A stretch of 64,000 nt of DNA from Gaiellales bacterium (GTDB lineage Bacteria; Actinomycetota; Thermoleophilia; Gaiellales; JAICJC01). Below the pieces are notes generated by a model. The model ran no database searches. It saw only the letters and a list, made by a program, of their open reading frames with translations, and was not told the DNA's origin. The translations under genes were made by a program, and so were the position numbers. The stretch is from contig JBJMJD010000087.1 in the NCBI GenBank assembly GCA_045806525.1, positions 22,814 through 86,813 of the forward strand, read 5' to 3'. Below are positions 13,680 through 29,828 of the stretch, piece after piece (the first letter of the stretch is position 1; every line of letters starts with the position of its first letter).

Positions 13680-13688
13680 GGCCGAAGG

Positions 13689-15005: not shown

Positions 15006-15033
15006 GCACGCACCCTAGCCCTACTATGCCGGG

Positions 15034-15453
15034 ATGCGACAGACACTGCGAGCAGCGGCCGCGGGTGCCGCCGCGGCCGGCTTCTGGGCCGCGGTGGAAC
15101 CGGGCCTGCGCCGGTTCACGCACTCCCCTCACACCGAGCCGCGGCTGGTGGGGCGGATGCTGGCGCCGGAGCGCTACTGGCTGCCGGTTGGGCTGACCGT
15201 GCACGTGGTGAACGGGGCCGTGTTCGGCCTCGTGTTCAATCGCCTCGGCGGCCGCGGCATCATCCGGGCGGTGGCGGCCGCCGAGATCGAGAACCTGTGC
15301 CTGTGGCCGACGCTGCTGGTGTTCGACGCACTGCACCCCGACGTGCGCGACGGCAGCTGGCCTGAGCTGTTCGGCGACCGGCGCGCGCTGGTGCACGAGA
15401 TGGCCGGGCACGCCGTGTTCGGCGTCGCGCTGGGGGCGTTGCTCCGGGACTGA
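15034..15453 (+). CDS. Hypothetical membrane protein
   Basis: 139-aa ORF with GC-rich third codon positions (by eye) and 3-4 hydrophobic segments. I did not recognise a family. Confidence 0.6.
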   Translation: MRQTLRAAAAGAAAAGFWAAVEPGLRRFTHSPHTEPRLVGRMLAPERYWLPVGLTVHVVNGAVFGLVFNRLGGRGIIRAVAAAEIENLCLWPTLLVFDALHPDVRDGSWPELFGDRRALVHEMAGHAVFGVALGALLRD

Positions 15454-15509
15454 GCGGCGGCCGGCGCCAGGGCACCGGTACCCCGGGCCACGGTTGGTAG
15501 GCTCGCGCG

Positions 15510-16677: not shown

Positions 16678-17643
16678 ATGCAATCCTCGAGACTCTTGAG
16701 CACCGACATGGCTCCGAACCATCCCTCAGACCAGGACGCGGCTGTGGCAGCGCTGCTTCGGCGCGTGGCTGCGACCGCCGGCGTGCACATGTATGAGATG
16801 GAGCTGTTCGACGACTTCGACTACGTCTGCCACGTCTGGATCGGCCAGGCCCTGGAGAGCCTGCTGGGCGCCGTGCCGGTGGGGATGGACAAGGAAGCGG
16901 CCTGGGAGGCGTGTATCCACCCAGACGACCGCGCCGGCTACGAGGCAGCGTTGGCTCCGCTCCTGAACGGCGAACCGACCGAGACGGAGTACCGGCTGGT
17001 CGGGTTCGACGGTGTCACCCGCTGGGTCTGGGAGCGCTGCATCCCCCGGCCGCTGGTCGACGGCAGGCGGCTGGTGGACGGCATCGTCACCGACATCACC
17101 GACCGCCACCTCGTCGAGCGCGAGCTGGCCGAGGCGCACGCCCGTCTGGCGCACCTGGCCTACCACGACCACCTCACCGGGCTGCCCAACCGCGCGCAGT
17201 TCCAGGAGCATCTGGACGTTGCGCTGGCCCGCGCCGGCCGCGGCGGCTCCTTCGTGGCCGTCCTGTTCATCGACCTGGACGGGTTCAAGCAGGTGAACGA
17301 CGCCCACGGCCACGGCGCCGGAGACTCGCTGCTACGGGCGGTCGGCGAGCGGCTCTCGGCGATCTCGCGCGACGGCGACGTGGTGGCACGCCTGGGCGGC
17401 GACGAGTTCCTGATGCTGGCCTGCCTGGGCGCTGCCGACCAGGCGCAGCTGGACGGTCTCTGCGACCGCGTCTACGAGCAGCTCCTGGCCCCGTTCAACG
17501 TCGAGGGCGCCGACCTCGAGGTGTCCGGCAGCGTCGGCCTGGCGCTGTTCCCGCGCGACGCGGGCACCGGCGACGACCTGATCCGGGCGGCCGACGTGGC
17601 GATGTACAGCACCAAGCAGCACGGTCGCCGCCGCGCCGCCTGA
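16678..17643 (+). CDS. PAS + GGDEF diguanylate cyclase
   Basis: PAS-like N-terminus. Active site RLGGDEFLML with an I-site RDGD at the canonical spacing. ATG 16708 is an alternative start. Confidence 0.85.
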   Translation: MQSSRLLSTDMAPNHPSDQDAAVAALLRRVAATAGVHMYEMELFDDFDYVCHVWIGQALESLLGAVPVGMDKEAAWEACIHPDDRAGYEAALAPLLNGEPTETEYRLVGFDGVTRWVWERCIPRPLVDGRRLVDGIVTDITDRHLVERELAEAHARLAHLAYHDHLTGLPNRAQFQEHLDVALARAGRGGSFVAVLFIDLDGFKQVNDAHGHGAGDSLLRAVGERLSAISRDGDVVARLGGDEFLMLACLGAADQAQLDGLCDRVYEQLLAPFNVEGADLEVSGSVGLALFPRDAGTGDDLIRAADVAMYSTKQHGRRRAA

Positions 17644-17654
17644 GCGCCGCCGCT

Positions 17655-18041
17655 TCAGACGGGCAGGTCGACCCCGTCCCGCGCCAGATTCTCGGCGAAG
17701 GCCGTAGCCCGATCGCCGCGAGGCCTCGACAGCTCGCCGGCGCCGCGGAACTGCGGCCCGATCTGGCGGCCGCACTCGAGGTACAGGGGATAGGTCTCGT
17801 TCACCAGCTGCTCGGCCGTCTCCGGCGGCAGCGCCTCGGCGGTCACCACCAGCAGGTCGATGTCGGAGTGCATCGGCGAGCCCGCGTCCCACATGTCGCC
17901 GCGGGCGGCCGACCCGAACAGCACCAGGCGCTTCAGCGAACCGCCGAGGCGCTCGCGCAGCATCCCGCAGTACCGGAGCAGGCACTCGCGCTCGAGCGGG
18001 GACAGGTGCCGCAGCGGATCGTCGCCGTCCGCGACCGGCAT
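17655..18041 (-). CDS. Small nucleotidyltransferase-domain (MNT-like) protein
   Basis: LVLFGSAARGD...HSDIDLLVV motif. ATG 18041 shares one base with the Rieske stop (TGATG). Confidence 0.75.
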   Translation of the reverse strand: MPVADGDDPLRHLSPLERECLLRYCGMLRERLGGSLKRLVLFGSAARGDMWDAGSPMHSDIDLLVVTAEALPPETAEQLVNETYPLYLECGRQIGPQFRGAGELSRPRGDRATAFAENLARDGVDLPV

Positions 18042-18349
18042 CACATCTCGACCTGGATCTCGCCGTCCTGCTCGCGCACCGGGTAGGTCTCGAGTGAAGC
18101 CACCGCGGGGCCCACCAGGGCCTCGCCGGTGCGGATGTTGAAGACGGCGCCGTGGCAGTAGCACTCGAGCTGCTGGTCGGTGAGCGTGCCCTCCGCCAGC
18201 GGGCACTCCTCGTGCGTGCACCAGCCCTCGAACGCGTAGAGGCTGCCGCCGCTGCGGGCCACCACCACCGGCTCACCGCGGTTGTCGGCCTCGAGCATCT
18301 CGCCTTCGGGCAGGTCGCCGGCCCCCGCCACGGTCGTCCAGTCAGCCAT
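18041..18349 (-). CDS. Rieske [2Fe-2S] ferredoxin
   Basis: 102 aa. CTHEEC...CYCHGAVF (CxH...CxxH). Confidence 0.85.
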   Translation of the reverse strand: MADWTTVAGAGDLPEGEMLEADNRGEPVVVARSGGSLYAFEGWCTHEECPLAEGTLTDQQLECYCHGAVFNIRTGEALVGPAVASLETYPVREQDGEIQVEM

Positions 18350-19538
18350 GCATCACGTCCCATCTCGCGTGCAGCGCCAGCGGCGCCCTGAACTCCCAGC
18401 CCGACAGCTCCACCGGCTGCTCCGCATCCAGGCGCAGGTGCGGCAGCCGCTCGAGCAGCAGCCGCAGCGGCAGGCGCACCTCGTGGCGGGCCAGCGACGC
18501 GCCCGCGCAGTGGTGCGCGCCCAGGCCGAACGCCGCGTGCGCGCCCGTGCGGTGGATGTCGAACCGCTCCGGTTGCTGCCAGTGGCGCTCATCCTGGTTG
18601 GCCGACGCCAGCACGGCGGCGATCACCGTGCCCGGCCGAAGCGTCACGCCCGCGATCTCCGTGCGCTCGGTCACCTGCCGCGTCTGCGTGCCAACCGGCG
18701 AGTGCCAGCGAAGCGCCTCCTCGACCGCACCGTCCAGCAGCTCCGGGTGCGCCCGCACCTCGGACAGCGCTTCGGGGTGCTGCAGCAGCGCCCACAGCGC
18801 GATGCCGAGCGCGTGCCCGGGCTCCTGCATGCCGCCCAGCAGGATCAGCTTCAGATTGGCCAGCACCTCCGCCTTCGACAGCCGCTCGCCGTCCGGCGGC
18901 TGGGTGTGCAGCATGTCCGACAGAACGCTTCCGTCCGGCTTCTGCTCCAGCCGGTCGAGCAGCGGCAGCACGCGATCATCGACCTCCGCGCTCGCGGCGT
19001 CGGCGATCGCCTGCTTGCCGGGATCCGACTCGAAGTTCGAGCCGCCCAGCGCAAGCGCGCCGAACCAGCGCCTCAGCGTGTCGGCGTCGGCGTCGCCGAG
19101 GCCCATCACCGCGCCCAGGGCCAGCACCGAGACCGGTTCGCAGTAGGTCGCCATCAGCTCGCCGCCGCCGTCCGGCTCGATCGCGGCCAGGTGCCGCCCC
19201 GCGATCGGCTCGATCACGGCCGAGGCATAGCCCGCCACCACGCGCGGCCGCATCGCCGGGTCGATGGTGGCCCTGATCCGGCGCTGCTCGGCGCCGTCCA
19301 CGGTCAGCATGTTCTGTCCCAGCGTGCGGGTCAGCGGTGAGGAGCCGACGTCGGCCGTGAACAGCTCCGGGTGCCGCGCAACGTGCTGGACGTCCTCCCA
19401 CCGCGTTATCAGGGTCAACCCCACCGCCGGCACGTGGCAGACCGGTGCCTCGTCGCGCAGCCGCCGGTAGATCGGGAACGGATCCCGCTCCAGATCCGCG
19501 ACCGTGATCGACTCGGCGAACGTCTCGATCGAGCTCAT
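18342..19538 (-). CDS. Cytochrome P450
   Basis: Starts MSSIETF at ATG 19538 (ATGA overlap with the upstream stop). Heme loop FGLGAHHCAGASLA. EEALRW (ExxR). Confidence 0.9.
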   Translation of the reverse strand: MSSIETFAESITVADLERDPFPIYRRLRDEAPVCHVPAVGLTLITRWEDVQHVARHPELFTADVGSSPLTRTLGQNMLTVDGAEQRRIRATIDPAMRPRVVAGYASAVIEPIAGRHLAAIEPDGGGELMATYCEPVSVLALGAVMGLGDADADTLRRWFGALALGGSNFESDPGKQAIADAASAEVDDRVLPLLDRLEQKPDGSVLSDMLHTQPPDGERLSKAEVLANLKLILLGGMQEPGHALGIALWALLQHPEALSEVRAHPELLDGAVEEALRWHSPVGTQTRQVTERTEIAGVTLRPGTVIAAVLASANQDERHWQQPERFDIHRTGAHAAFGLGAHHCAGASLARHEVRLPLRLLLERLPHLRLDAEQPVELSGWEFRAPLALHARWDVMHG

Positions 19539-20860
19539 AGGTGGTGCGTGTACTCGGCGAACTCCCAGTCGGTCACGTACTTGCGGGCGCGGTCGAGCTC
19601 GGCGCCCTTGATCGTCAGGAACGTGCCGACCAGCTCCTCGCCCATCGCGTCCTTGATCACGGCGTCGGCGTCCAGCGCCTCCAGCGCCGCGTCGAACGTG
19701 CGCGGCAGCGGGGTGCAGTCCTCGGCGCCGGGCTGCTCGTAGATCAGGCCCTCGAACGGCTCCGGCGGCTCCAGCTGACGCTCGATGCCGTCCAGGCCCG
19801 CGAACAGTGCGGCCGCGGCTGCCAGGTAGGGGTTGGCGGCGCCGTCGCCCAGGCGCAGCTCGATGCGGGTGGCGCCGCCGCGCTCGCGTGGCACCCGCGC
19901 CAGGCACAGCCGGTTGTCGTGGCCCCAGCTGACCAGGGTCGGCACCAGCGCCTCCTCGTTGATGCGGCGGTAGGCGTTGGTGGTGGGGTTGAAGAAGGCC
20001 ATCAGCGCCGGGCCGTGGTCGAGCAGCCCGGCCAGGAAGTGGTGGGCGACGTCGGAGAGCCCCTGGTCGCGGTCGCCGTTCAGCAGGTTCGCCCCGGAGT
20101 CGTCCGACAGCGACAGGTGCAGGTGGAAGCCGGATCCCTCGTCGTCGTTCCAGGGCTTGCCGATGAACGTGGCCAGCAGCCCGTCGATCGCGGCCATCTC
20201 CTTGACCACGTTCTTGAACAGGTAGGCGCGGTCGGATGCGTCCAGCGCGTCGGAGTGGCGCAGGTTGATCTCGTACTGCGAGCGGCCGAACTCGTGGTTG
20301 GCGGCGTAGGCGCCGAGATCCATGTCGACGCACGCGTGCAGCATCCGGCGCAGCAGTCCGCGCGGGTCGGCAACCGCGCCCACCGTGTAGACGTGGCTGT
20401 CGTTGTCGACGTAGCGGCGGTAGCCGTTGGGGGCCGACGGGTCGGCCTCGCACAGGTAGAACTCCAGCTCCGGGCCCAGCACCGGCACCAGCCCACGCTC
20501 GGTGTAGCCTGCGATCGCCCGCTTGAGCACGCCGCGCGAGTCGACGCCGTAGGGCGACCCGTCCATCCGCTCCAGGTCGGCCAGGCAGAGGGCGACATCG
20601 GCATCCCAGGGCAGCCGGCGCAGCGTCGAGGGGTCGGGCCGCGCCACGATGTCCTGAAAGCCGTGCTCGAACCCGGCCACCACGTTGTGCCGCAGGTCGA
20701 CCGTCATGATCGCCTCGCAGTGGGCCGCGCCGTCGTCGGACAGGTGCTCGAAGAACGAGACCGGGAACTCCTTGCCGCGCGCGATGCCATGCAGATCCGG
20801 GTAGCTGAGCCGGACAGTGTTGACGCCGGCCTTGATCAGCTGATCGAGCGTTTCGGCCAT
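19535..20860 (-). CDS. Glutamine synthetase-like gamma-glutamyl ligase (GlnA3/PuuA/IpuC-type)
   Basis: 441 aa. GS catalytic fold motifs: GPELEFYL, NHEFGRSQYEI, GSGFHLHLSL, NAYRR, RIELRLGDGAANPY. Confidence 0.9.
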   Translation of the reverse strand: MAETLDQLIKAGVNTVRLSYPDLHGIARGKEFPVSFFEHLSDDGAAHCEAIMTVDLRHNVVAGFEHGFQDIVARPDPSTLRRLPWDADVALCLADLERMDGSPYGVDSRGVLKRAIAGYTERGLVPVLGPELEFYLCEADPSAPNGYRRYVDNDSHVYTVGAVADPRGLLRRMLHACVDMDLGAYAANHEFGRSQYEINLRHSDALDASDRAYLFKNVVKEMAAIDGLLATFIGKPWNDDEGSGFHLHLSLSDDSGANLLNGDRDQGLSDVAHHFLAGLLDHGPALMAFFNPTTNAYRRINEEALVPTLVSWGHDNRLCLARVPRERGGATRIELRLGDGAANPYLAAAAALFAGLDGIERQLEPPEPFEGLIYEQPGAEDCTPLPRTFDAALEALDADAVIKDAMGEELVGTFLTIKGAELDRARKYVTDWEFAEYTHHL

Positions 20861-20895
20861 CTACCGCCCTTTCCGAGAGGAGGGATCGAAGTGTT

Positions 20896-22143
20896 TCACG
20901 CCGGCGTGACCCGCACCGGCATGGTCTTGTAGGCGTTGGTGAAGTTCGAGTGCATGCGGCTGGCGGGCGCGGTCGGTTCGACCGCGGAGATGCGCGGCAA
21001 CAGCTCCTCGAACATGATCCGGGTCTCCAGCTTGGCCAGATGCGCGCCCAGGCAGAAGTGGGGGCCGCCGCGGCCGAACGTGACGTGGTTGTTGGGCTTG
21101 CGGGTGATGTCGAACCGCAGCGGATCGGGGAACTGCTGCTCGTCGTAGTTGGCCGACACCAGCCACGTGACGACCTTGTCGCCCTCGCGGATGCGGACGT
21201 CGTGCAGCTCGGTGTCGGCCGTTGCCGTGCGCCGGAAGTGGATCACCGGCGAGCTGTAGCGCATGATCTCCTCGGTCGCGCTGCCCATCAGGTCGGGCTG
21301 CTCCTGCAGCCGCCGCATCGCCTCCGGGTTGTCCATCAGCGCCTGCATGCCGTGGGCGATCGACTGGCGCGTGGTCTCGTTGCCGGCCACCACCAGCAGC
21401 AGGAACATCGTGTCGAACTCCTGCTCGGTCAGCCGGTTTCCGTCCTCGTCCTCCCACATCACCAGCTTCGAGACGAGGTCGTCGGTGGGATGCTCGCGGC
21501 GCTCGCGGGCGATCTGGTGCCCGTAGTTGTAGAGCTCCATCGCGTAGGGGCTGCGGAACGGGTAGAGCCGGTACTTTGCGCTCTCCGGGCTGGCCGGGTG
21601 CAGGCCGCCGAGGTCGGGATCGGTGTTGCCGATCATCTTGTCGCCCCAGGCGATCAGCCGCTCGTCGTCGGACAGCGGCACACCCAGAATCCGGCACAGC
21701 ACCTGGATCGGCAGCTGCTTGGCGACCTCCTCGACGAAGTCGAACTCGCCTCGGGGCAGCGACTCGTCCAGGATCTGGCGGGTGAGATCGCGCAGCAGCT
21801 GCTCATAGGCGGCCACCGCCCGCGGGGTGAAGCCCTTGTTCACGATCGCGCGCAGGCTCGAGTGCTTGGGCGGGTCGGTGTCCAGCATCGACTTGCGGGC
21901 CTCGATCTGGTCGGGGTCGAGGTCCTCGAGCGCCGTCGCACCGGTCTCCGACGAGAAGGTGCGCCAGTCCTTCAGCACCGCCACCACGTCGTCGTAGCGG
22001 GTGATGCACCAGAACCCCTTGCCGTACTCCCAGTCGTACCAGTGCACGGGCGCCTGGCGGCGCATCAGCGTGAACGTCTCGTGCGGGATCCGCTCCGCAA
22101 AGGCGTCGTTGTCGAGGTAGACATCGGCCAGGGTGTGGGTCAT
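20896..22143 (-). CDS. Cytochrome P450
   Basis: 415 aa. Heme loop FGRGGPHFCLGAHLA. AGNETT I-helix motif. EEIMRY (ExxR). Confidence 0.9.
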   Translation of the reverse strand: MTHTLADVYLDNDAFAERIPHETFTLMRRQAPVHWYDWEYGKGFWCITRYDDVVAVLKDWRTFSSETGATALEDLDPDQIEARKSMLDTDPPKHSSLRAIVNKGFTPRAVAAYEQLLRDLTRQILDESLPRGEFDFVEEVAKQLPIQVLCRILGVPLSDDERLIAWGDKMIGNTDPDLGGLHPASPESAKYRLYPFRSPYAMELYNYGHQIARERREHPTDDLVSKLVMWEDEDGNRLTEQEFDTMFLLLVVAGNETTRQSIAHGMQALMDNPEAMRRLQEQPDLMGSATEEIMRYSSPVIHFRRTATADTELHDVRIREGDKVVTWLVSANYDEQQFPDPLRFDITRKPNNHVTFGRGGPHFCLGAHLAKLETRIMFEELLPRISAVEPTAPASRMHSNFTNAYKTMPVRVTPA

Positions 22144-23588
22144 GCCGTGCTCCCATCCAGGATCTGCAGCGTCTTCAGGTCGGAGTAGAAGTCGAGCGCG
22201 TAGTCGCCGCCCTCGCGGCCGATGCCGCTGATGCCTACCCCGCCGAAGGGCGCCGTCAGGTCGCGCACCAGGAAGGTGTTGACCCAGACGGTGCCGGCGC
22301 GGACCGCCCGCCCCACCCGCTCGGCCCGCTCCCGCGTGCCGGTGTAGACGATCGCCGACAGGCCGTAGCGGGTGGAGTTGGCCAGCTCGACGGCCTCCCG
22401 CTCGTCGCGAAACGTCTGGAACGTCAGCACGGGGCCGAACACCTCCCGCTGCACCACCTCGGAGTCGTTGGACCGCGGCTCGATCAGCGTCGGCTCGTAC
22501 CAGAGGCCGCCCATCTCCGGCTGCCTGCCGCCGCGCACAATCCTGTCGCCGTTTGCCCGCGCCCGCTCGACGAAGCCCTCGACGCGGGCCAGGTGGTCGG
22601 GATGGATCAGCGGCGAGACGGTGGTGCGGTCGTCACGCGGGTCGCCCAGCACCTGGGCGTCGACGCCGGCGTGGAACCGCTCCAGGAAGGCGTCGCGGAC
22701 CGACTCCTCGACCAGCAGACGGGTGCCGGCCAGGCACACCTGCCCGGCGTCGTCGTACTGGCCGGCGGCCTTGGCGGCGGCCGCGTCCAGGTCGGAGTCG
22801 GCGAACACGATCAGCGGCCCCTTGCCGCCCAGCTCGGCCGTGAACGGGACGATGTTGGCTGCGGCGGCAAGGCCGATCGAGCGCCCGGTCTCGGGTGAGC
22901 CGGTGAAGCTGATGCGGCGCAGGCCGGTGCTCGAGACCAGCGCTGCGCCGGCCTCCTCACCGATGCCCTGGACGACGTTGAACACGCCGGGCGGGAATCC
23001 GGCCTCGGCCGTCAGGTCGGCCAGCAGCGAGCACGAAAGCGGCGCCCACTCCGGTGGCTTCAGGATCACCGTGCAGCCGGCGGCCAGACCCGGCGCCGTT
23101 TTCCAGGTGGACAGCATGAACGGCGCGTTCCAGGGCGTGATAACGGCGGCCGCGCCGCTGGGCATCCGGATCACGCGGTTCTGGGTCGAGTTCGAGCTCC
23201 ACACGCGCTCCTGGTAGGTGGCGGACAGGTCGGCATAGGCGCGGAAGTTGCGCGCGCCGCGGGCGATCACGCGCGCCTTCAGCGAGCGCTCCAGCATCGC
23301 CATGTCCAGGCACTCGACCGTGGCGATGCGGTCGATGTTCGCGTCGATCAGCTCGGCCAGGCGGTGCAGGTGGGCGGCGCGGCCCTCCGCCCCCAGCGCC
23401 GCCCAGTCCGGGAAGGCGGCGCGGGCCGCGTCCACGGCCTGATCGACGGCCTTCTGGTCGCCGCGGGCGACCTCGGCGATCACGCGCTGGTCGATCGGCG
23501 AGATCACCTCGAACGTGTCGTCACCGTCGACCCGCTGGCCGCCGATGAAGTGGCCCGACGGGACGGTGATGTTCGCGACCGTGCTCAC
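22140..23588 (-). CDS. NAD-dependent aldehyde dehydrogenase (HpaE / hydroxymuconic-semialdehyde dehydrogenase-like)
   Basis: GTG start with GTGA overlap. ITPWNAPFMLSTWKTAPGLAAGCTVILKPPEW, ELGGKGP, and GQVCLAGTR catalytic Cys. Confidence 0.9.
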   Translation of the reverse strand: MSTVANITVPSGHFIGGQRVDGDDTFEVISPIDQRVIAEVARGDQKAVDQAVDAARAAFPDWAALGAEGRAAHLHRLAELIDANIDRIATVECLDMAMLERSLKARVIARGARNFRAYADLSATYQERVWSSNSTQNRVIRMPSGAAAVITPWNAPFMLSTWKTAPGLAAGCTVILKPPEWAPLSCSLLADLTAEAGFPPGVFNVVQGIGEEAGAALVSSTGLRRISFTGSPETGRSIGLAAAANIVPFTAELGGKGPLIVFADSDLDAAAAKAAGQYDDAGQVCLAGTRLLVEESVRDAFLERFHAGVDAQVLGDPRDDRTTVSPLIHPDHLARVEGFVERARANGDRIVRGGRQPEMGGLWYEPTLIEPRSNDSEVVQREVFGPVLTFQTFRDEREAVELANSTRYGLSAIVYTGTRERAERVGRAVRAGTVWVNTFLVRDLTAPFGGVGISGIGREGGDYALDFYSDLKTLQILDGSTA

Positions 23589-24361
23589 GTTCGGAACTCC
23601 ATCAGGCCAAGGTCGAGCACGCTGACGCCGCCGTCGACAGGGATCACGGTGCCGTTGACGTAGGCGGCCGCCGGCGAGAGCAGCCAGGCCACCAGCCCGG
23701 CCACCTCGTCGGCCTCACCGGCGCGGGGGATGGGCATGTGGGCGTGCGCCAGCCGGTAGGCGCCCTCGCGGTCGGTGCCGCGGAGCCCGGCCAGCTCGTC
23801 CATCGCGCCGTCGGCCATGGGGGTGCGGATCCAGCCCGGGCAGACCGCGTTTGCGCGCACACCGCGCGGGCCAAAGTCGACGGCGATCGACTGCACGAGC
23901 ATGTTCAGGCCGGCTTTGGACGTGCAGTAGGCCGATGAGTCGGGCCCGGCTCGCAGGCCGGCCAGCGAGGAGACCGCGACCAGGGAGCCGCCGCGCCGCT
24001 CGAGGTGGGGGAGGGCCGCGCGTGCGGTCAGGAAGGCGCCGGTGAGGTTGCTGCGCAGCACCGCGTCCCAGCTCTCCGGCGTCTGGTCGACGACGCTGCC
24101 CGAGTGCGACACGCCCGCGCAGTAGACCAATGCGTCGAGGCCGCCCAGCTCCTCGACGGCCGTGCGGACGGCGGTCTCGGCGCCGGCAGGGTCGCCGCAG
24201 TCGCCCGCCACCGCGATGCCGCCGATCTCGGCCGCCACCTGCGCCAGCGGATCCAGCCGGCGCCCGGTCACGACCACCCCGTAGCCGTCGGCCGCGAGCC
24301 GCCGCGCGACGGCCGCACCGATGCCGGTGCCGCCACCGCTGACCAGCGCCGCCGCGCTCAT
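23585..24361 (-). CDS. Short-chain dehydrogenase/reductase
   Basis: ATG 24361 (ATGA overlap). VSGGGTGIG cofactor loop. Catalytic YCTSK. Confidence 0.85.
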   Translation of the reverse strand: MSAAALVSGGGTGIGAAVARRLAADGYGVVVTGRRLDPLAQVAAEIGGIAVAGDCGDPAGAETAVRTAVEELGGLDALVYCAGVSHSGSVVDQTPESWDAVLRSNLTGAFLTARAALPHLERRGGSLVAVSSLAGLRAGPDSSAYCTSKAGLNMLVQSIAVDFGPRGVRANAVCPGWIRTPMADGAMDELAGLRGTDREGAYRLAHAHMPIPRAGEADEVAGLVAWLLSPAAAYVNGTVIPVDGGVSVLDLGLMEFRT

Positions 24362-25146
24362 TCCGGAATCGTCTCGAGGTCGTCGACGGTATAGGCGAAC
24401 TGGAATCGGAAGCCCTTGCCGACCCTCAGCGGCGCCAGCGTGTCGTGCTCCTCGCCCGGCGCGGGGTACAGCGCCAGCGTGGCCGCTCCCTCGTGAATCT
24501 GGGAGGCCGAGCGGTTGCTGGAGCGGGCCCGCACCAGCTCGTCGACCGCCGGGTCGCCCCACCGGCCCGCCGCCAGGCGCGGGAAGTGGCGGTGGTTGAC
24601 CAGGGGCGGGTCGTTGTGCGTGGGGCCGGCTTCGCTCAGCCGGTCGGGACTGACCGTGCCCTCGGCCAGCAGCCGGCCGTTGGCGGTGAGCGTGCCGGCG
24701 AAGATACGGCCCTCGGCCCGGCAGTCAAGGCCAAAGCTGCGCGTCATGTGCACCTCGCCAAGCTTCTTTGGGAACCCCTGGATCCAGCCCCGGATCAGGG
24801 CGAAGTCGCGGTCGACCCAGATGTAGGGACAGGTGGTGACGTGCTCGTCTCCCAGCATCGCGTTGGCGACGATGAAGAACTCCTTGTACTGGCTGCGCAC
24901 CGGGTCGAGCAGCTCCTCGCCCGAGTCGGAGCAGGACTGCCAGTCGACGAACAGGGCGGCGCAGCGGCCGGGGTCGTCGGCGAAGGCGGTCAGCCGCGCG
25001 GGCAGCACGGCGGCCACCGCGTCCGGGTCGGCCCAGAACTCGATCACCAGGAAGTCGCCGACGTAGTGCCATGGCGGCGATGGGATGATGGACGCGCCGC
25101 CGTGCGGGGAGAGCGGCAGCGAGTATCCGCGCGGCCCGTCGCTCAT
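24358..25146 (-). CDS. Acetoacetate decarboxylase (ADC)-family protein
   Basis: ATG 25146 (ATGA overlap). 262 aa: PPWHYVGDFLVIEFWADP...YKEFFIVANA...IWVDRDFALIRGWIQGFPKKLG, typical of the ADC beta-cone family. Confidence 0.8.
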   Translation of the reverse strand: MSDGPRGYSLPLSPHGGASIIPSPPWHYVGDFLVIEFWADPDAVAAVLPARLTAFADDPGRCAALFVDWQSCSDSGEELLDPVRSQYKEFFIVANAMLGDEHVTTCPYIWVDRDFALIRGWIQGFPKKLGEVHMTRSFGLDCRAEGRIFAGTLTANGRLLAEGTVSPDRLSEAGPTHNDPPLVNHRHFPRLAAGRWGDPAVDELVRARSSNRSASQIHEGAATLALYPAPGEEHDTLAPLRVGKGFRFQFAYTVDDLETIPE

Positions 25147-25427
25147 GGCCGCTCCAGGGAGCCGACCACCTCGTACATGACCGCGTCGTCGGCCGGCGAC
25201 ACCTCGATGCCGAGCCGCTCGCGCGCCTCCTCGATCTTCGCCATCGCGGCGTCCGCGGCATCGGCGTCCTGGAACACGGTCACCGACACCGCCGAGCCGT
25301 CCTCGGCCAGGCAGTGGTAGAGAGCGGTCACACCCTCCACGCCGCGCAACGCCTCGATCACCCACTCGGAGCGGTCGAGACCGAGGTCACCGCGTCCCGC
25401 CTCGAAGCGGGCGACGCGGACGATCAC
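25143..25427 (-). CDS. Small ABM/dimeric alpha-beta-barrel-like protein
   Basis: GTG 25427 (GTGA overlap with the hpaB stop). 94 aa: VIVRVARFEA...VSVTVFQDADAADAAMAKIEEA. The family assignment is tentative. Confidence 0.55.
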   Translation of the reverse strand: MIVRVARFEAGRGDLGLDRSEWVIEALRGVEGVTALYHCLAEDGSAVSVTVFQDADAADAAMAKIEEARERLGIEVSPADDAVMYEVVGSLERP

Positions 25428-26893
25428 GAGGGCTCCTCCAGGAACTGCTCGACCAGCGACTCCGGGAACGACTTGTCGGCGATCTTGTAGGCCAGCGCCG
25501 TCATGCGGTAGGAGTCGGACAGGTAGAACCGCTCGTAGAGCTCGCCGCGACCGCCCAGGTCGCTGCCGATGTAGTCCCAGGCCAGGCGGAACAGGCGGAT
25601 GCGGCGCTCGGCGTCGGCACCGGCTGCCTGGTAGTACTTCGCGATCTCGTCGGCCAGCGGGCCGTCCATGTCGGCCCGCGAGGGCGTGGCCATGAAGCCA
25701 CCGCCGCCGATCAGCTGCAGCAGCTCGTTCACATAGGGCAGCCATTTCGGCATCTCGCCGCGCAGCGCCAGGAACGGGCGGTCGTCCGGATACCAGACGC
25801 CGCCCTCGTCCAGGGCCGAGCCGGCCTCCGCCGAGATCAGGCCGGAGCGGGTCAGCTCGGCCATGTTCCAGACCTGGCCGAGCTTCTCCTGGATGTGGTC
25901 GAAGCGCACCACGCCGGTGGTGTTGGCAAGCATGTGGCCGAGCCCGAGCGCGAACGACAGCTTCACGTAGGCACGCGTGAAGGCCTGGTGCATGATGTGT
26001 CCGCGCCAGCCGGTGTCGGTGATCACCTCCGAGTAGGCCTCGGTGTCACCGCACAGGAACAGCCTGTCCTTCGGCACCTCGACGTTGTCGAAGATGACGA
26101 CGGCGTCCATCTCGTCGAAGCGCGACGACAGCGGGTAGTCAAACGCCGAACGCTGCTTCGAGTAGCTGTCGCGGCAGATGAAGCGCAGGCCGGGCGTGCC
26201 CATCGGCAGCGCGAAGGCCAGCGCGTAGTCGCCGTCCTGGGGGCGGATGTCGGAGCCGGGGTAGATGGTCAGCTCGTCGGCGTAGGGGGCCAGCGTGGCC
26301 AGCATGCGCGCCCCGCGCACGGTGATGTGGTTCTCGGTCTCACCCACCTTGTGCAGGGCGACCTCGCCCGCCGCCTGCTCGGCCTCCGGCTTGCTGCGGT
26401 CGACCTGCGGGTTCATGATCGAGTGGGTGGTGGAGAGGTCGCGGTCGCGCATAAGCTTCTGGTAGGCGACCAGATTGGCGGCCCCCTGCTCGTTGCCGCG
26501 GCGCGCCCAGACGTCGGCGCGGCCGGCGAAGCAGGCGAAGGTGACGTTCAGGTAGTCGGGGGTGCGGCCCATCATGCCGGCGGTGAGGGCGGCGGTCAGC
26601 TCGATGGCGCGGCGGCGGCGCTCGAGGTCTTCGCGGCTGCGCGGGATCAGGTGGGTGACGTTGACCAGGCGCCCGTCGTCGGGCGAGGCCGCCAGCATCT
26701 CGTCGGCGTGCTGGTGTTGCAGGTCGTAGACGCGGGCCATGGTGCGCGCCGCCTCGGCCAGCTGCGGGTGCTCGAGCGGGTGGGTGATCTTCTCGCCGTT
26801 CAGCCAGATCTCGCGGGCGTCGCCGCGCAGGCCGTCCAGGAACTGCTGGCCGGTGCGGGCGGCTGTCGGCGTCTGCTGCTGCGCGGTTGCCAT
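25424..26893 (-). CDS. hpaB: 4-hydroxyphenylacetate 3-monooxygenase, oxygenase component family
   Basis: 489 aa with HpaB-family hallmarks along its length (GRTPDYLN, THSIMNPQVDRSK, RFDEMDAVVIFDNVEVP, ERFYLSDSYRM). Confidence 0.9.
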   Translation of the reverse strand: MATAQQQTPTAARTGQQFLDGLRGDAREIWLNGEKITHPLEHPQLAEAARTMARVYDLQHQHADEMLAASPDDGRLVNVTHLIPRSREDLERRRRAIELTAALTAGMMGRTPDYLNVTFACFAGRADVWARRGNEQGAANLVAYQKLMRDRDLSTTHSIMNPQVDRSKPEAEQAAGEVALHKVGETENHITVRGARMLATLAPYADELTIYPGSDIRPQDGDYALAFALPMGTPGLRFICRDSYSKQRSAFDYPLSSRFDEMDAVVIFDNVEVPKDRLFLCGDTEAYSEVITDTGWRGHIMHQAFTRAYVKLSFALGLGHMLANTTGVVRFDHIQEKLGQVWNMAELTRSGLISAEAGSALDEGGVWYPDDRPFLALRGEMPKWLPYVNELLQLIGGGGFMATPSRADMDGPLADEIAKYYQAAGADAERRIRLFRLAWDYIGSDLGGRGELYERFYLSDSYRMTALAYKIADKSFPESLVEQFLEEPS

Positions 26894-27822
26894 CAGGCCT
26901 CCTGGTGTGTCAGCGGGGGAAGCTGCTCTCCCTTCGCGAGCAGGCCGTCGCGCTCGTAGCGGACGGCCTCCTCGTCGAATCGGAAGTATGACCGTGGCGG
27001 CAGGATGCCCCAGACGTTGCTCGAGTGGGGGGTGTCGTCCCAGTCACGCGGCTCGTGATCGGGCTCGAGTTGCTCCATGTCGCAGTAGCACTCCACGATC
27101 AGCTGCTCGTCGGGGACGCGAACGTACCCGCACAGGTTCTGGGCCAGCGCGTGGCGCAGGGGGCCCCAGACCAGCCAGCGGCCGTGCTGGCCGAGGTGGT
27201 CGAACACCACCCGCAGCTCGCCCCAGTCGACGTACTCGAACGCGAAATGGTGGAAGTGGGCTACGTCGTGCTGCACGAGCGCCATAGAGTGGTGGTCGGA
27301 GTTGATCGAGAGCCAGTTGCCGGCGCCCAGCAGGCGGTCGGATATGCGCATGCCCAGCACGTCGGTGTAGAAGGAGGTGGCGCGGTCGAGGTCGGTGGTG
27401 AGCACGTTCACGTGGCCGAGCTTGCGCGGGTGCAGCCCCGGCAGCGTCTCGGTCGACCGTGCCACCGGCGGCCGGCGGTCGTCCTCCTCGCGGAACGGCA
27501 TCAGCTCGATGCCATAGCCGTCGGGGTCTGCGAAGTGGAGGCCCCCGTCGTGGTGCTCGTAGTCGACGCCGTGGTGCTCGAGCTGGGCGGCCGCGTGCGC
27601 CAGCGTGCAGCTGCGGCGAAGCTCCCAGCCGGTGTGGTCGTGGCCGGGAGGTTCGGCGCCGACCAGCTGGAGCGAGTAGGGCTCGTAGGCGCAGCGCAGG
27701 AAGGCGTGGTGGCCGACCCGCTCCACCTCGGTCAGGCCGAACTGGATCGCCCAGCGGTGCTCGGCCTCGTCCAGGTTGGCGACCCGCAGCGCCACGTGAT
27801 CGATGCGGCGGATCTCGATCAT
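26893..27822 (-). CDS. Type I extradiol ring-cleavage dioxygenase (catechol/homoprotocatechuate 2,3-dioxygenase-like)
   Basis: Two VOC modules. IDHVALRV..., LGHVNVLT..., HHFAFEY metal-ligand region. Confidence 0.85.
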   Translation of the reverse strand: MIEIRRIDHVALRVANLDEAEHRWAIQFGLTEVERVGHHAFLRCAYEPYSLQLVGAEPPGHDHTGWELRRSCTLAHAAAQLEHHGVDYEHHDGGLHFADPDGYGIELMPFREEDDRRPPVARSTETLPGLHPRKLGHVNVLTTDLDRATSFYTDVLGMRISDRLLGAGNWLSINSDHHSMALVQHDVAHFHHFAFEYVDWGELRVVFDHLGQHGRWLVWGPLRHALAQNLCGYVRVPDEQLIVECYCDMEQLEPDHEPRDWDDTPHSSNVWGILPPRSYFRFDEEAVRYERDGLLAKGEQLPPLTHQEA

Positions 27823-28694
27823 GATCGCGTCACTCCCTCCTGTGCCGCTCGCTCCGCCTCGTCCTCGGGCATGGCCAGCGCGACGTGCAGCGTGTTGGCC
27901 GAGACCTGCAGCTGGTCGCCCGGCCCGGACAGGTCGACGTCCCAGTCCACCACCGTGTTCGAGAGCCGGCCGAGGCCCGTCACCTCGACCTCGACCACGT
28001 CGCCCGGCTCCATCGGCCGCGAGTGGGCGGGGGTGCCCGAGAGCAGGACGTCGCCGGGCATCAGGGTGATCACACGGCAGAGGTCGGCCAGCAGGTAGGA
28101 GACGGGCCAGATCAGGTCGGCCGCTGAGCCCTGCTGTGCTACCTCGCCGTTCAGATAGGTGCGGATCTCGAAGTCGGTGGGGTCGAACTGGTCGGCGGGC
28201 ACCAGCTCGGGGCCGATCGGGCAGAACCCGTCCTGGCCCTTGACCCGCAGCATCGAGCCGCGGTCGGCGTGGCGGAAGTCGTGCAGGCCGACGTCGTTCG
28301 CGCAGGCATAGCCGGCGACGTGGTCGAGCGCGTCCGCCTCGGGCACGCCCTGCATGGCGCGTCCGATCACGACGGCCAGCTCGCCCTCGTAGTTGAGGAA
28401 GCGGGCGCCCCGCGGGCGGCGCAGCTCGCCGCGGTGGCCGTTCAGGGTGGTGGGCGGCTTCATGAAGTAGGAGGGCTCTGGCGGCGTGCGAGCGGCGTAC
28501 TCCTCGACGCGGCTACGGTAGGTGAGGTGGGTGGCGATGATCTTGGTCGGCTCGACCGGCGCCAGGAAGTGCGCGGTCGCCTCGTCCAGGCGGTCGCCGG
28601 AGGCGAGGACGACGCTGCCGCCGTCCAGCCGGCCCCAGCTGGGAGACCCCTCGACCAGCACCCGAACCCGTCGCTCAGACACGATTGGATACAA
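27819..28694 (-). CDS. Fumarylacetoacetate hydrolase family protein (HpaG-like isomerase/decarboxylase)
   Basis: YEGELAVVIG, VKGQDGFCPIGP, GDVLLSGTP. The ORF-track start 28694 is TTG. GTG 28682 (VSERRVRVLV) is an alternative and could be leaderless. Confidence 0.85.
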   Translation of the reverse strand: MYPIVSERRVRVLVEGSPSWGRLDGGSVVLASGDRLDEATAHFLAPVEPTKIIATHLTYRSRVEEYAARTPPEPSYFMKPPTTLNGHRGELRRPRGARFLNYEGELAVVIGRAMQGVPEADALDHVAGYACANDVGLHDFRHADRGSMLRVKGQDGFCPIGPELVPADQFDPTDFEIRTYLNGEVAQQGSAADLIWPVSYLLADLCRVITLMPGDVLLSGTPAHSRPMEPGDVVEVEVTGLGRLSNTVVDWDVDLSGPGDQLQVSANTLHVALAMPEDEAERAAQEGVTRS

Positions 28695-28719
28695 TATGCG
28701 CTTTGCTGCTGGACGGCAA
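28691..28719 (-). promoter_or_regulatory. Candidate sigma70-type promoter of the 12-gene operon
   Basis: The minus strand reads TTGCCG(28719-28714)-17 nt-TATTGT(28696-28691). GTG 28682 lies 8 nt after the -10 element. Confidence 0.35.
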
Positions 28720-28761
28720 GCCCGGCTCCCCGGTCTGGTGGACGCGGCTACCTGACCGAGT

Positions 28762-29367
28762 CTATCCCTGCGTCGGGGCGAGCTCGTCGCGCCAGTGGCG
28801 CAGGGCGGCGACGCCGGTTTCGACCTGGTCGCGGGTGAGGTCGTGGCGGGTGACGTTGGGAATGCGCTGCAGCGGGCCGGTCAGCGGGTCCTCGCCCGCG
28901 GCGGCGTTCAGCAGCATGCGCAGCGGCAGGTTGTGGCTGACCACCAGCACCACCGGCCCTGGCAGCCTCAGCACGCGGCGCCACCCCGCCAGGAAACGGG
29001 TGGTGGCGTCGAGTGCGCTCTCGCCTCCGGGGGGTGCCGCGGTCAGTGGGTTGTCGCGAAGCCAGGTCGTGTAGGCGGATACGGGGCCGTCCTCGAACGG
29101 GCCGACGACGATCTCGGCGAGCTGGTCGACGACGTGGGTCGAAACGTGGCGGTCAGCCACGAGCGCCGCCGCGGTCAGGCGTGTTCGCAGGGACGGCGCG
29201 ACGACGAGCGCGTCGATCTGCTCCGACGCGAGTTCGCGGCCAAGGCCGCGGGCGGCGCGCTCACCGGGGGCGGTCAGGCCCACCTCGACGGTCGAGTCGG
29301 GGTTCATACGGCCCTGAGCGCTGTACGGCGTCTCGGCGTGGCGGACGAGGATGAAGCTGTTGACCAT
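28762..29367 (-). CDS. Histidine phosphatase (phosphoglycerate mutase-like) family protein
   Basis: MVNSFILVRHAETPYS (RHxxT motif) ...VVSHNLPLR. ATG 29385 is an alternative start. Confidence 0.75.
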   Translation of the reverse strand: MVNSFILVRHAETPYSAQGRMNPDSTVEVGLTAPGERAARGLGRELASEQIDALVVAPSLRTRLTAAALVADRHVSTHVVDQLAEIVVGPFEDGPVSAYTTWLRDNPLTAAPPGGESALDATTRFLAGWRRVLRLPGPVVLVVSHNLPLRMLLNAAAGEDPLTGPLQRIPNVTRHDLTRDQVETGVAALRHWRDELAPTQG

Positions 29368-29462
29368 GCACTCATCGTGTCGCATGGGTCGGCTGTCCGT
29401 CCAGCGGGGCGTGGCCGGCGCGTGCTGGATATGGTTGGGCGGTGACCGAGCAGGAGGACGAA

Positions 29463-29828
29463 ATGGACCAGGCGACGCGGCACGAGCGCGGCCTCGCGCG
29501 GCTGAAGGAGCTGGGCGACGAGCCCGGCGGGGACGCCTTCATCGAGCGGATGGGCAGCCCGATGGGCGACTGGCTGGTGGACTGGGTGTTCGGCGAGGTG
29601 CATACACGCGACGGGCTGACGGCGCGCGAGCGGGAGCTGATCATCGTGGCGGTGCTGACGGCGATCGGCAGCTCGGACCCCCAGGTCGCAGCGCACATCC
29701 GGGCGCTGCGGGCGATCGACGTGCCCTGGCAGGAGATCGAGGAGACGATCTTGCAGACGGCGCCCTACGCGGGCATCCCGCGGGCGATCAACGCGCTCAA
29801 GGTGCTGCGGACGGAGCAGGGACGATGA
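29463..29828 (+). CDS. Carboxymuconolactone decarboxylase (CMD) family protein
   Basis: ATG 29463 with AGGAGG (29452-29457) 5 nt upstream. LTARERELIIVAVLTAIG...ETILQTAPYAGIPRAINAL. GTG 29442 is an alternative start. Confidence 0.8.
   Translation: MDQATRHERGLARLKELGDEPGGDAFIERMGSPMGDWLVDWVFGEVHTRDGLTARERELIIVAVLTAIGSSDPQVAAHIRALRAIDVPWQEIEETILQTAPYAGIPRAINALKVLRTEQGR

Follow-up and report, generated by a model that had tools for sequence, protein, structure and literature searches.

Several bacterial routes of amine catabolism are started by gamma-glutamylation, namely the Puu, Ipu, Atd/Tdn and Npa pathways. In the tyramine/dopamine catabolon of Pseudomonas putida U and in the TynA-FeaB-Hpa route of Escherichia coli the amine is removed first, by an oxidase or dehydrogenase, and degradation ends in meta-cleavage of the homoprotocatechuate type. 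The locus described here brings gene families of both kinds together. It lies in a stretch of 64,000 nucleotides of contig JBJMJD010000087.1 (the window; GC content 68-75%), assigned by its closest relatives to an uncultured Gaiellales/Thermoleophilia soil bacterium, and consists of an island of about 21 kb (approximately 17.6-38.9 kb of the window) in which a glutamine synthetase-like (GS-like) ligase gene and two P450 genes are embedded among genes for ring hydroxylation and cleavage. Gaiellales and related Thermoleophilia are abundant in soil and almost wholly uncultured, and little is known of their nutrition.

From the gene content, we propose that the island may degrade an arylalkylamine of the phenylethylamine/tyramine/dopamine type, possibly including O-methylated forms, and that the gamma-glutamyl group would be retained through ring cleavage; we put the probability of this reading at roughly 45%. 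All the enzyme families involved were known beforehand, as was amine catabolism started by gamma-glutamylation. The fusion of gamma-glutamylation with HpcE-type meta-cleavage is new, as is the presence in such a pathway of a probable hydratase-aldolase of the ADC superfamily, and retention of the glutamyl group across ring cleavage is probably new as well.

Gene string and ligase

The original prediction, made from the sequence alone, described twelve minus-strand genes, and the same set was obtained from the open reading frame (ORF) listing and from an independent gene call based on codon-position GC (GC3). In their 5' to 3' order on the minus strand these genes are:

27819-28694, minus: FAH1, HpcE/HpaG-like decarboxylase/isomerase (248 bits to E. 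coli HpcE, 1GTT)
26893-27822, minus: type I (vicinal-oxygen-chelate) extradiol dioxygenase of a divergent subfamily, 309 amino acids (two Glyoxalase domains)
25424-26893, minus: HpaB-family FADH2-dependent phenol ortho-hydroxylase, 489 amino acids (HpaB_N and HpaB domains)
25143-25427, minus: protein of ABM (ferredoxin-like) fold, 94 amino acids (from predicted structure; no Pfam match)
24358-25146, minus: ADC-superfamily MppR/Sbi00515-like enzyme, 262 amino acids (229.6 bits and 46% identity to PDB 4ZBO, Sbi00515)
23585-24361, minus: short-chain dehydrogenase/reductase, 258 amino acids (Pfam adh_short)
22140-23588, minus: HpaE-like ring-fission semialdehyde dehydrogenase (the aldehyde dehydrogenase, ALDH), 482 amino acids (best NCBIfam match HpaE, 499.5 bits, cut-off 638)
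20896-22143, minus: P450a, CYP125/CYP124-like (406 bits to a CYP125 ancestral reconstruction; 261-274 bits to CYP124 and CYP125)
19535-20860, minus: GS-like ligase, predicted gamma-glutamyl-amine ligase of the GoaS type, 441 amino acids (Gln-synt_C domain)
18342-19538, minus: P450b, GcoA-like (CYP255-type; about 265 bits to structures of the aromatic O-demethylase GcoA, its best PDB matches)
18041-18349, minus: soluble Rieske-type [2Fe-2S] ferredoxin, 102 amino acids (Pfam Rieske; best PDB matches the TodB, BphF, NdoA and CarAc ferredoxins)
17655-18044, minus: small nucleotidyltransferase, 129 amino acids (weak Polbeta and NTP_transf_2 Pfam matches)

The family assignments made earlier were borne out by Pfam and NCBIfam, except for that of the 94-amino-acid ORF. 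The "ABM-like" label given to the latter fits its predicted fold, since a single-sequence AlphaFold model (pLDDT 74) matches Rv0793, IsdI and ActVA-Orf6 with a TM score of about 0.6. This small protein is lineage-specific and was found in only 7-9 close relatives. A base-by-base check showed that all the listed junctions were correct. ATGA or GTGA overlaps occur at 27819-22, 25424-27, 25143-46, 24358-61, 23585-88, 22140-43 and 19535-38, a TGATG overlap at 26893 and an 8-nt overlap at 18342-49; the sole gap, of 35 nt, is located at 20861-20895. The junction between the Rieske and nucleotidyltransferase genes can be read either as TGATG (1 nt) or as GTGA (4 nt), with both starts in frame. These overlaps suggest translational coupling and a single operon. 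A scan with promoter and terminator consensus sequences, uninformative in sequence of 71% GC, revealed no terminator-like site, and its lone promoter-like match (24728-24701, inside the ADC gene) is within chance expectation. The start of FAH1 is ambiguous (TTG 28694, GTG 28682 or GTG 28661), and GTG 28682 or 28661 may be the real one, in which case the transcript might be leaderless. Directly upstream of FAH1, at 28692-28720, the sequence TTGCCG, 17 nt, TATTGT is a possible -35/-10 pair that overlaps TTG 28694.

The residues of the GS-like ligase were compared in an alignment of 65 orthologues with E. coli GlnA and PuuA. Those involved in binding metal, ATP and glutamate (E129, E131, E212, E220, H269, H271, R321, R339, R344, E357 and R359) are invariant in all 65 orthologues. 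The ammonium site, on the contrary, is changed (S53V, Y179V, N264E, and E327L in the flap, where PuuA has Y; the D50 region is not alignable), and E. coli PuuA shows the same pattern of substitutions. Loss of this site is the signature of glutamyl-organic-amide synthetases unable to use ammonium (PMC11335346; PMC6478659). Because the metal, ATP and glutamate residues are kept and the ammonium site is lost as in PuuA, the protein is classified, on its residues, as a gamma-glutamyl-amine ligase according to the GoaS criterion (catalytic core kept, ammonium site lost). The earlier statement that it is not a true glutamine synthetase is upheld by the replacement of S53, Y179 and the E327 flap; the candidate identity as a true GlnA was rejected on the same active-site residues.

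The ligase scores below every NCBIfam equivalog cut-off, including that of GlnA (TIGR00653; 295.7 bits, cut-off 429). Its score against the gamma-glutamylputrescine synthetase equivalog is 283.5 bits (cut-off 650), hence it is not a PuuA orthologue, and its identity to PuuA is 32%. Comparison with plasmid-borne GS and GS-like genes gave identities of no more than 36%, except within its own cluster type. It clusters with the ligases from the Streptomyces and Embleya sets described below; a rough neighbour-joining tree places it with the Streptomyces ones, apart from E. coli GlnA and PuuA. A preference for catecholamines is attributed to another GS homologue, PA5508, by Ladner et al. 2012 as cited in PMC6478659.

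Variant clusters and the proposed fate of the glutamyl group

The closest counterparts of the ligase are found in two metagenome-assembled genomes (MAGs; 97% identity) and in soil metagenome contigs (94-96%). To define the conserved neighbourhood, one genome per species was scanned, which yielded 78 loci with relatives of the GS-like protein. The window proteins were mapped on these loci by tblastn and gene-family clustering, and counts refer to the 60 loci in which 8 kb or more of sequence was available upstream of the ligase gene. The ADC-like and ALDH genes each lie beside the ligase in 52/60 loci, followed by P450a and HpaB (51/60 each), CMD (carboxymuconolactone-decarboxylase family; 49/60, always paired with FAH2), FAH2 (48/60), FAH1 (46/60) and the dioxygenase (43/60). 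P450a is one of the most constant ligase neighbours. All five of HpaB, ADC, ALDH, P450a and an FAH are present in 40 of the 60 loci, and two loci have none of the five. The short-chain dehydrogenase/reductase was found in about 37% of the related loci, and P450b in about 35%, always with the Rieske gene.

Hosts with ligase identities down to about 50-60% include Gaiellales, Solirubrobacterales, Thermoleophilaceae, Chloroflexota, Thermomicrobium and a Bacillaceae MAG, with rearranged gene orders among them. The neighbourhood is kept in more than 50 genomes, which excludes the chance juxtaposition that the original prediction had named as the outcome that would speak against it. Its view of the genes as one catabolic unit also holds, and this unit is conserved, order and content being kept in relatives down to about 50-60% protein identity. 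The operon limits that it proposed were, however, too narrow: the twelve genes stand, and the island extends beyond them to approximately 38.9 kb. The following genes lie between FAH1 and that limit:

28762-29367, minus: histidine phosphatase family protein (Pfam His_Phos_1)
29442-29828, plus (divergent): CMD-family protein (Pfam CMD; 63 bits to PcaC, below threshold)
29834-30655, plus: FAH2, a second HpaG-like FAH (FAA_hydrolase; 156 bits to HpaG-C-term, cut-off 276)
30849-32375, minus: Amidohydro_3 metal-dependent hydrolase, 508 amino acids (Pfam Amidohydro_3)
33402-34736, plus: APC-family permease 1 (AA_permease_2; start codon uncertain)
34800-36062, minus: class-III omega-aminotransferase, 420 amino acids (Aminotran_3; omega-aminotransferase subfamily matches)
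36059-36772, minus: predicted PuuD-like gamma-glutamyl amide hydrolase (C26), 237 amino acids (Peptidase_C26)
36769-38298, minus: APC-family permease 2, GadC/TyrP-like (AA_permease_2; weak matches to GadC and to a tyrosine-tyramine antiporter)
38359-38859, minus: MarR-family protein, candidate island regulator (weak MarR_2 match; syntenic in metagenome relatives)

The island thus adds to the twelve-gene string the CMD-FAH2 pair, the Amidohydro_3 gene, two APC permeases and a permease/C26/aminotransferase operon. This second overlapping operon (34800-38859, minus strand) contains the MarR, permease 2, C26 and aminotransferase genes; the stop of permease 2 overlaps the C26 start as TTGA, and the aminotransferase start overlaps the C26 stop as ATGA. 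The C26 protein has the gamma-glutamyl-GABA (gamma-aminobutyrate) hydrolase as its best NCBIfam match (89 bits, below threshold) and is 30% identical to PuuD. The aminotransferase ORF is full length, and its product shares 31% identity with PuuE of E. coli. When metagenomes were scanned with C26 as the seed, the order MarR, C26, aminotransferase, permease, Amidohydro_3, FAH2, CMD, FAH1, dioxygenase and HpaB was obtained, and relatives with C26 identities as low as 66% still show it from MarR to HpaB. Where C26 homologues are more remote, their partners are other GS-like genes. Permease 1 is embedded in the cluster in several relatives. The Amidohydro_3 gene is syntenic in the type-A relatives, and in the lineage of the window it is kept beside the cluster. 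The PDB relatives of the Amidohydro_3 protein are all uncharacterised; this hydrolase may free the amine from a natural amide, e.g. an N-acyl-tyramine.

The gene set has been rebuilt in more distant hosts. Searches of plasmid and chromid records with P450a and the ligase identified it in Streptomyces canus, Embleya, S. lunaelactis and Novosphingobium, and a megablast of the 11-kb region against plasmids gave no close relative, with matches to the ALDH segment only. Three Streptomyces clusters (L077, L078 and pSLUN1) carry a group-II pyridoxal phosphate (PLP)-dependent decarboxylase, the ligase, a LigB-type dioxygenase, an HpaE-like ALDH, an FAH and an ADC gene, with no P450, HpaB or amine oxidase. 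In addition, they contain an overlapping pair of genes encoding an ALDH 49-51% identical to E. coli PuuC and a protein of the gamma-glutamyl-GABA-hydrolase family. Embleya combines P450a, accompanied by a ferredoxin (Fdx) and a ferredoxin reductase (FdR), with LigB, ALDH, FAH and ADC genes and with a PuuC-like ALDH-C26 pair. The LigB-type dioxygenase takes the place of the type I enzyme in the Streptomyces, Embleya and Novosphingobium clusters. In Solirubrobacterales, C26, ADC, FAH1 and aminotransferase genes form one string, and a PLP decarboxylase is carried as well. The number of hydroxylases ranges from 0 to 3 across the variants, whereas the ligase, dioxygenase, ALDH, FAH and ADC are constant. 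Some of the Streptomyces copies are plasmid-borne, one of them at about 12 kb from a non-ribosomal peptide synthetase (NRPS) gene, and PhzF-like and F420/LLM genes are located near some variants.

We suggest that the glutamyl group would be carried through ring cleavage because the P450-less Streptomyces clusters carry the PLP decarboxylase together with the PuuC/PuuD-like pair. A protected-amine route uses every gene of these clusters, in which nothing is present to remove the nitrogen before ring cleavage. In the proposed pathway, an APC permease would import the amine, and the GS-like ligase would form the gamma-glutamyl amide from the amine, ATP and glutamate. P450a, P450b (by O-demethylation) and the HpaB-family hydroxylase would then build a catechol on the protected amine, with the Rieske ferredoxin feeding the P450s, and the extradiol dioxygenase would open the ring. 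The HpaE-like ALDH, FAH1, FAH2 (with or without CMD) and the ADC-family hydratase-aldolase would run a lower pathway of the homoprotocatechuate type. Since the side chain would be -CH2CH2NH-gamma-Glu instead of -CH2COOH, the aldol step should give pyruvate and gamma-glutamyl-4-aminobutyraldehyde, which is the substrate of PuuC; according to the carbon bookkeeping, the products of the lower pathway would be pyruvate, CO2 and this aldehyde instead of succinic semialdehyde. An ALDH, the PuuD-like C26 hydrolase and the omega-aminotransferase would finish as in the Puu pathway, yielding glutamate and GABA and then succinic semialdehyde. Protection might serve to stop the free amine from cyclising onto the aldehyde or ketone of the ring-fission product, as occurs with seco-DOPA.

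Enzyme properties and competing readings

The enzymes of ring hydroxylation and cleavage resemble those of the Hpa pathway, and all five Hpa-like enzymes score below their equivalog cut-offs. The HpaB-family protein reaches 428.8 bits against HpaB-1 (cut-off 480.2) and 347 bits against Thermus thermophilus HpaB. It keeps the phenol triad R100, Y104 and H142, and the carboxylate-binding residues S197-T198-L199 are replaced by G-S-D in 45/45 orthologues. On equivalog score and carboxylate residues it falls outside the strict 4-hydroxyphenylacetate (4-HPA) 3-monooxygenase definition, and inside the wider HpaB family. The S197/T198 positions set the tail specificity of HpaB, and mutation there or an added Asp confers activity on tyramine (PMC6710988, PMC10537072). 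The dioxygenase reaches 118 bits against catechol 2,3-dioxygenase and 110 bits against HpaD (TIGR02295; cut-off 321), both cut-offs being around 320, so that it does not attain the HpaD equivalog level; its best PDB match gives only 69 bits and HPCD structures 30-39 bits. Similarly, the LigB-type enzymes of the variant clusters reach 124-130 bits against a TIGR02298 cut-off of 316. Because the Hpa-like enzymes are below their cut-offs and the carboxylate site of HpaB is replaced, the substrate of this set is probably not free 4-HPA or homoprotocatechuate. The homoprotocatechuate-type back end of the original prediction is therefore retained as regards the families present, and put in doubt as regards the free acids as substrates.

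FAH1 scores 204 bits against HpaG-C-term (cut-off 276). The CMD and FAH2 genes are 5 nt apart, and the pair is kept in about 80% of the related genomes. According to these similarities, FAH1 and FAH2, with CMD, could cover the decarboxylase and isomerase steps of the HpaG type, and the CMD protein may substitute for the isomerase (HpaF) or for the decarboxylase step. The window ALDH is 39% identical to E. coli PuuC. The ALDH of the cluster on a plasmid of Novosphingobium sp. EMRT-2 (L082, 14593-16050) matches it with 71% protein and 76% DNA identity and lies next to a ligase of only 35% identity, which suggests either horizontal transfer or an unusually strong constraint on the ALDH.

No HpaF, MhpD-type hydratase (HpaH) or HpaI aldolase was found in the window, as had been stated, and the role of HpaH and HpaI is probably taken by the ADC-family enzyme. 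This protein keeps the GFPKKLG motif with the Schiff-base lysine, and among PDB entries Sbi00515 scores higher against it (229.6 bits) than MppR does (172.9 bits). MppR is its sole NCBIfam match (TIGR04460), at 205 bits against an equivalog cut-off of 380. Sbi00515 is a pyruvate aldolase-dehydratase: it joins pyruvate to aldehydes and then removes water from the product. Its relative Swit_4259 acts as a hydratase on 2-oxo-hex-3-enedioate. We know of no biological role assigned to Sbi00515. Run in the catabolic direction, chemistry of the Sbi00515 type equals that of HpaH plus HpaI, and on this basis we propose that the ADC-family protein is probably a 2-oxo-3-enoate hydratase-aldolase replacing both. 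In S. solfataricus, a role as aldolases of the meta-pathway has been put forward for ADC-like proteins that are induced on phenol (PMC7820114). Public metagenomes contain over 2,000 close homologues of the island's ADC-like enzyme. The best 120 matches of a protein search seeded with it were all close soil relatives, and Sbi00515 was not among them.

With regard to the P450s, homologues of P450a (42-52% identity) have GS-like genes as neighbours in five hosts, namely S. canus, Embleya, Novosphingobium, Ruegeria and Mesorhizobium. In the latter two they adjoin GS-like ligases and gamma-glutamyl hydrolases in Ipu-like modules, and because the clade recurs in this setting, P450a probably oxidises a gamma-glutamyl amide. 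P450b, judged by its similarity to GcoA, is a probable accessory module of the aromatic O-demethylase type. The Rieske gene follows P450b in 24 loci and directly follows the ligase in seven loci without P450b (among them L006, L034, L056, L069, L072 and L075). Classical ferredoxins, with or without a reductase, are found in place of the Rieske protein in the S. canus, Novosphingobium and Mesorhizobium clusters. Because the Rieske gene follows the ligase where P450b is missing, and because ordinary ferredoxins replace it in variants, the Rieske protein probably supplies the P450s with electrons, which would make it an unusual type of partner. One recent precedent for such a pairing is SpFdx4 with DoxA (PMC12979805).

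That the substrate is a nitrogen-containing aromatic compound, as originally proposed, is the most sensible reading of these data. Retention of the glutamyl group fits the variation of the hydroxylases from 0 to 3 around a constant core, the family scores below the cut-offs and the invariant G-S-D of HpaB. Several observations weigh against it. Two aldehyde oxidations are needed, and a single ALDH is encoded in the 64-kb window. A flavin reductase and a ferredoxin reductase are absent from the window, as the original prediction had it; a flavin reductase may be encoded elsewhere in the genome. The type-B Gaiellales loci (L025-L042, L070, L073 and L074) keep FAH2, CMD, FAH1, HpaB, ADC, ALDH, P450a and GS genes and show no extradiol dioxygenase within 10 kb. 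In these loci, genes for an IclR protein and a sarcosine-oxidase-like DAO flavoprotein (only 23% identical to PuuB) lie between the ligase and C26, followed by an M14 peptidase and an EamA transporter. Furthermore, omega-aminotransferases can act directly on arylalkylamines, so that this gene does not discriminate between models, and the sub-threshold scores could reflect phylogenetic distance only. To these have to be added the Novosphingobium cluster, with two ALDHs and no C26 hydrolase, and the megaplasmid of Ruegeria sp. TM1040 (L083, 6499-17095), where a set of P450a-homologue, GS-like, glutamine amidotransferase-type hydrolase and class-III aminotransferase genes adjoins paaABCD and a PaaE-like gene.

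The last two observations fit a route in which an arylethylamine is gamma-glutamylated and then loses its nitrogen before the ring is cleaved. P450a would hydroxylate the carbon next to the amide nitrogen, the carbinolamide would break down to an arylacetaldehyde and glutamine, and an ALDH would produce 4-HPA or homoprotocatechuate (the latter from dopamine) for the classical Hpa route to pyruvate and succinic semialdehyde; C26 would act only as a safety valve, like AtdA2/TdnT in the aniline pathway. The constancy of P450a beside the ligase and the recurrence of its clade in GS-P450-hydrolase modules of the Ipu type are in agreement with this route, and so is the similarity of the back-end enzymes, greatest to HpaB, HpaE and HpcE. 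The Ruegeria set, situated beside phenylacetyl-CoA epoxidase genes, hints at a module that feeds phenylacetate catabolism through an arylacetate product. On the other hand, Streptomyces clusters with the same ligase clade have neither P450 nor oxidase and yet contain a PuuC-like ALDH overlapping a PuuD-like hydrolase, and in Solirubrobacterales C26 and the aminotransferase stand inside the lower-pathway string. The G-S-D replacement in all 45 HpaB orthologues and the sub-cut-off scores of the Hpa-like enzymes are also contrary to it, and CYP124/125-type enzymes such as P450a are typically terminal hydroxylases. The single ALDH and the type-B loci are weaknesses that early nitrogen removal shares with the protected-amine route. 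Altogether, we consider early nitrogen removal less probable than the protected-amine route, and a serious rival to it. The order of reactions given in the original prediction (gamma-glutamylation, oxidation by a P450, ring hydroxylation and cleavage) agrees with the recurrence of the ligase-adjoining P450 clade in Ipu-like modules, whereas the P450-less Streptomyces clusters argue against any version of it in which nitrogen is lost before the ring is cleaved.

Other explanations would divide the island or change its substrate. Two independent pathways, one for a homoprotocatechuate-type aromatic acid and one for an aliphatic amine as in Puu or Ipu, might be co-located through a shared end in succinic semialdehyde/GABA. 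Both would converge on succinic semialdehyde, free-standing GS-P450-C26 modules without ring-cleavage genes exist in Mesorhizobium and Ruegeria, and distant C26 homologues have other GS-like partners. Such a division is nevertheless improbable, given that 4-nt overlaps tie the ligase and P450a into the aromatic string between ALDH and P450b, that over 50 genomes retain this embedding, which is rebuilt in other orders, with non-orthologous dioxygenases, in several phyla, and that the Streptomyces clusters lack an aliphatic-amine oxidase. We give still less credit to a ring amine such as an aminophenol or aminophenylacetate, which would be gamma-glutamylated and attacked by a P450 at the ipso position, releasing glutamine and a catechol or 4-HPA for meta-cleavage. 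GS-like ligases do start the degradation of aniline, chloroaniline and 1-naphthylamine (PMC11335346), and aromatic dioxygenase systems have ferredoxins similar to the Rieske protein of the island; the region, however, contains no Rieske oxygenase large subunit, and beyond its own cluster type the ligase has no match above 36% identity. The PLP amino-acid decarboxylases, PuuC-like ALDH and omega-aminotransferases point to an alkylamine nitrogen, and the HpcE-like FAH implies a side chain on the ring-fission product. The least probable of the alternatives is a biosynthetic role, in which a modified amino acid or heterocycle would be made from DOPA or tyrosine, by comparison with extradiol cleavage in lincomycin and pyrrolobenzodiazepine formation and with MppR in that of enduracididine. 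It is suggested by MppR being the only NCBIfam match of the ADC protein, and by the plasmid-borne Streptomyces copies, the NRPS gene near one of them and the PhzF-like and F420/LLM genes near some variants. Contrary to it, an ALDH, an HpcE-like FAH, a hydratase-aldolase, a gamma-glutamyl hydrolase, an aminotransferase and permeases are typical of catabolism, the cluster stands among housekeeping genes in Gaiellales genomes and is vertically conserved in many soil MAGs, and the window has no NRPS, polyketide synthase or tailoring genes.

Flanking genes and comparison with known systems

Two genes within the island limits appear to be foreign to the pathway. The nucleotidyltransferase is present in only 6-7 of the closest relatives and has no adjacent HEPN partner gene, although minimal nucleotidyltransferases of this kind are usually paired with a HEPN toxin; it is probably a lineage-specific passenger or remnant, joined to the operon by the overlap of 1-4 nt. 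The histidine phosphatase was found in 5/60 genomes, the closest relatives only, and is probably outside the pathway. Membership of both proteins in the pathway was considered and judged unlikely, as both are confined to the closest relatives. At 17643-17655 the nucleotidyltransferase gene meets a convergent plus-strand gene for a PAS-GGDEF diguanylate cyclase, with the stop codons 11 nt apart, and no terminator-like hairpin was detected. Further downstream (12747-16640) are genes for an iron-type alcohol dehydrogenase, a small ORF, a photolyase and a second two-domain vicinal-oxygen-chelate protein, a block that is syntenic with the cluster in many Gaiellales. The alcohol dehydrogenase is 4-hydroxybutyrate-dehydrogenase/ErcA-like, below threshold, and by this similarity could handle succinic semialdehyde. 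A formate-dehydrogenase-like set occupies 2934-7433, where a gene with a molybdopterin domain (2934-4634) precedes a NuoE/NuoF-like fusion gene, which is followed by the N-terminal part with its 2Fe-2S/4Fe-4S region (6495-7433), so that the catalytic subunit seems to have been split and its parts permuted.

The island represents one conserved catabolic trait of Gaiellales. If the proposed route is correct, it would represent a new design principle, in which the amine is protected and the ring is then cleaved, and would join the Hpa and Puu textbook pathways. It would likewise explain the co-occurrence of GS-like ligases, P450s, extradiol dioxygenases, FAH and ADC-like enzymes in Streptomyces, Embleya and Novosphingobium, and would give enzymes of the Sbi00515 type a biological function. 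The route predicts formation of gamma-glutamyl-tyramine or gamma-glutamyl-dopamine, and gamma-glutamyl-GABA as end product. Tentatively, the gene families and their distribution may be extended to a widespread strategy of soil bacteria, with glutamate as a removable protecting group, the Sbi00515 family as pathway hydratase-aldolase and a Rieske ferredoxin as P450 partner. Possible uses in biocatalysis are catechol formation on protected amines and the P450/Rieske-ferredoxin pair. The original prediction knew of no described pathway with this combination of genes, and our full-text literature searches did not find one either; they also revealed no bacterial pathway through gamma-glutamyl-tyramine or gamma-glutamyl-dopamine, compounds that they returned only as animal metabolites and in the context of methanofuran.

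Several known systems share parts of the island. It has in common with the Hpa/Hpc pathway of E. coli and T. thermophilus an HpaB-family hydroxylase, an extradiol dioxygenase, an HpaE-like ALDH and an HpcE-like FAH, as well as the logic of a dehydrogenative meta-pathway leading to pyruvate and a C4 aldehyde. It differs in having no HpaC, HpaF, HpaH or HpaI, an ADC enzyme instead of hydratase and aldolase, changed tail residues in HpaB, and a gene string that also holds a gamma-glutamyl ligase and P450s. The P. putida U and TynA-FeaB-Hpa routes would serve the same presumed nutrients; the island carries a gamma-glutamyl ligase and no amine oxidase or dehydrogenase. With regard to the ADC enzyme, the Sbi00515 (4ZBO)/MppR-like family offers 46% identity to Sbi00515 and the Schiff-base lysine motif, whereas MppR acts in enduracididine biosynthesis and the island protein is below the MppR equivalog cut-off. 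P450b resembles GcoA of the guaiacol O-demethylase GcoAB at about 265 bits, and instead of a three-domain reductase of the GcoB type a Rieske ferredoxin gene overlaps the P450b gene.

Among the routes started by gamma-glutamylation, those for aniline, chloroaniline and 1-naphthylamine (AtdA1/TdnQ/NpaA1) share with the island the first step, a C26-type hydrolase and later meta-cleavage (PMC11335346). They remove the ring nitrogen with a two-subunit Rieske dioxygenase, whereas the island has P450s and HpaB, no oxygenase subunits, and tail enzymes of the alkylamine type. The Ipu pathway for isopropylamine (Pseudomonas KIE171, Arthrobacter aurescens TC1) comprises a permease, a GS-like ligase, a ferredoxin, a hydrolase of the glutamine-amidotransferase type and a P450 whose substrate is the gamma-glutamyl amide (PMC6776027). 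In the island, ligase, P450 and Rieske-type ferredoxin genes are adjacent, C26 is about 15 kb away, and no reductase is present; the Ipu pathway involves no hydroxylation or cleavage of an aromatic ring. With the Puu pathway (PuuA-E, PuuP), finally, the island shares a ligase with the same loss of the ammonium site, a PuuD-like hydrolase, a PuuE-like aminotransferase and an APC permease. A clearly PuuC-like ALDH, of 49-51% identity, is confined to the variants in Streptomyces and Embleya. The window has no PuuB-type oxidase, and in the proposed route gamma-glutamyl-aminobutyraldehyde would arise by aldol cleavage of a ring-fission product, and not by oxidation of gamma-glutamylputrescine.

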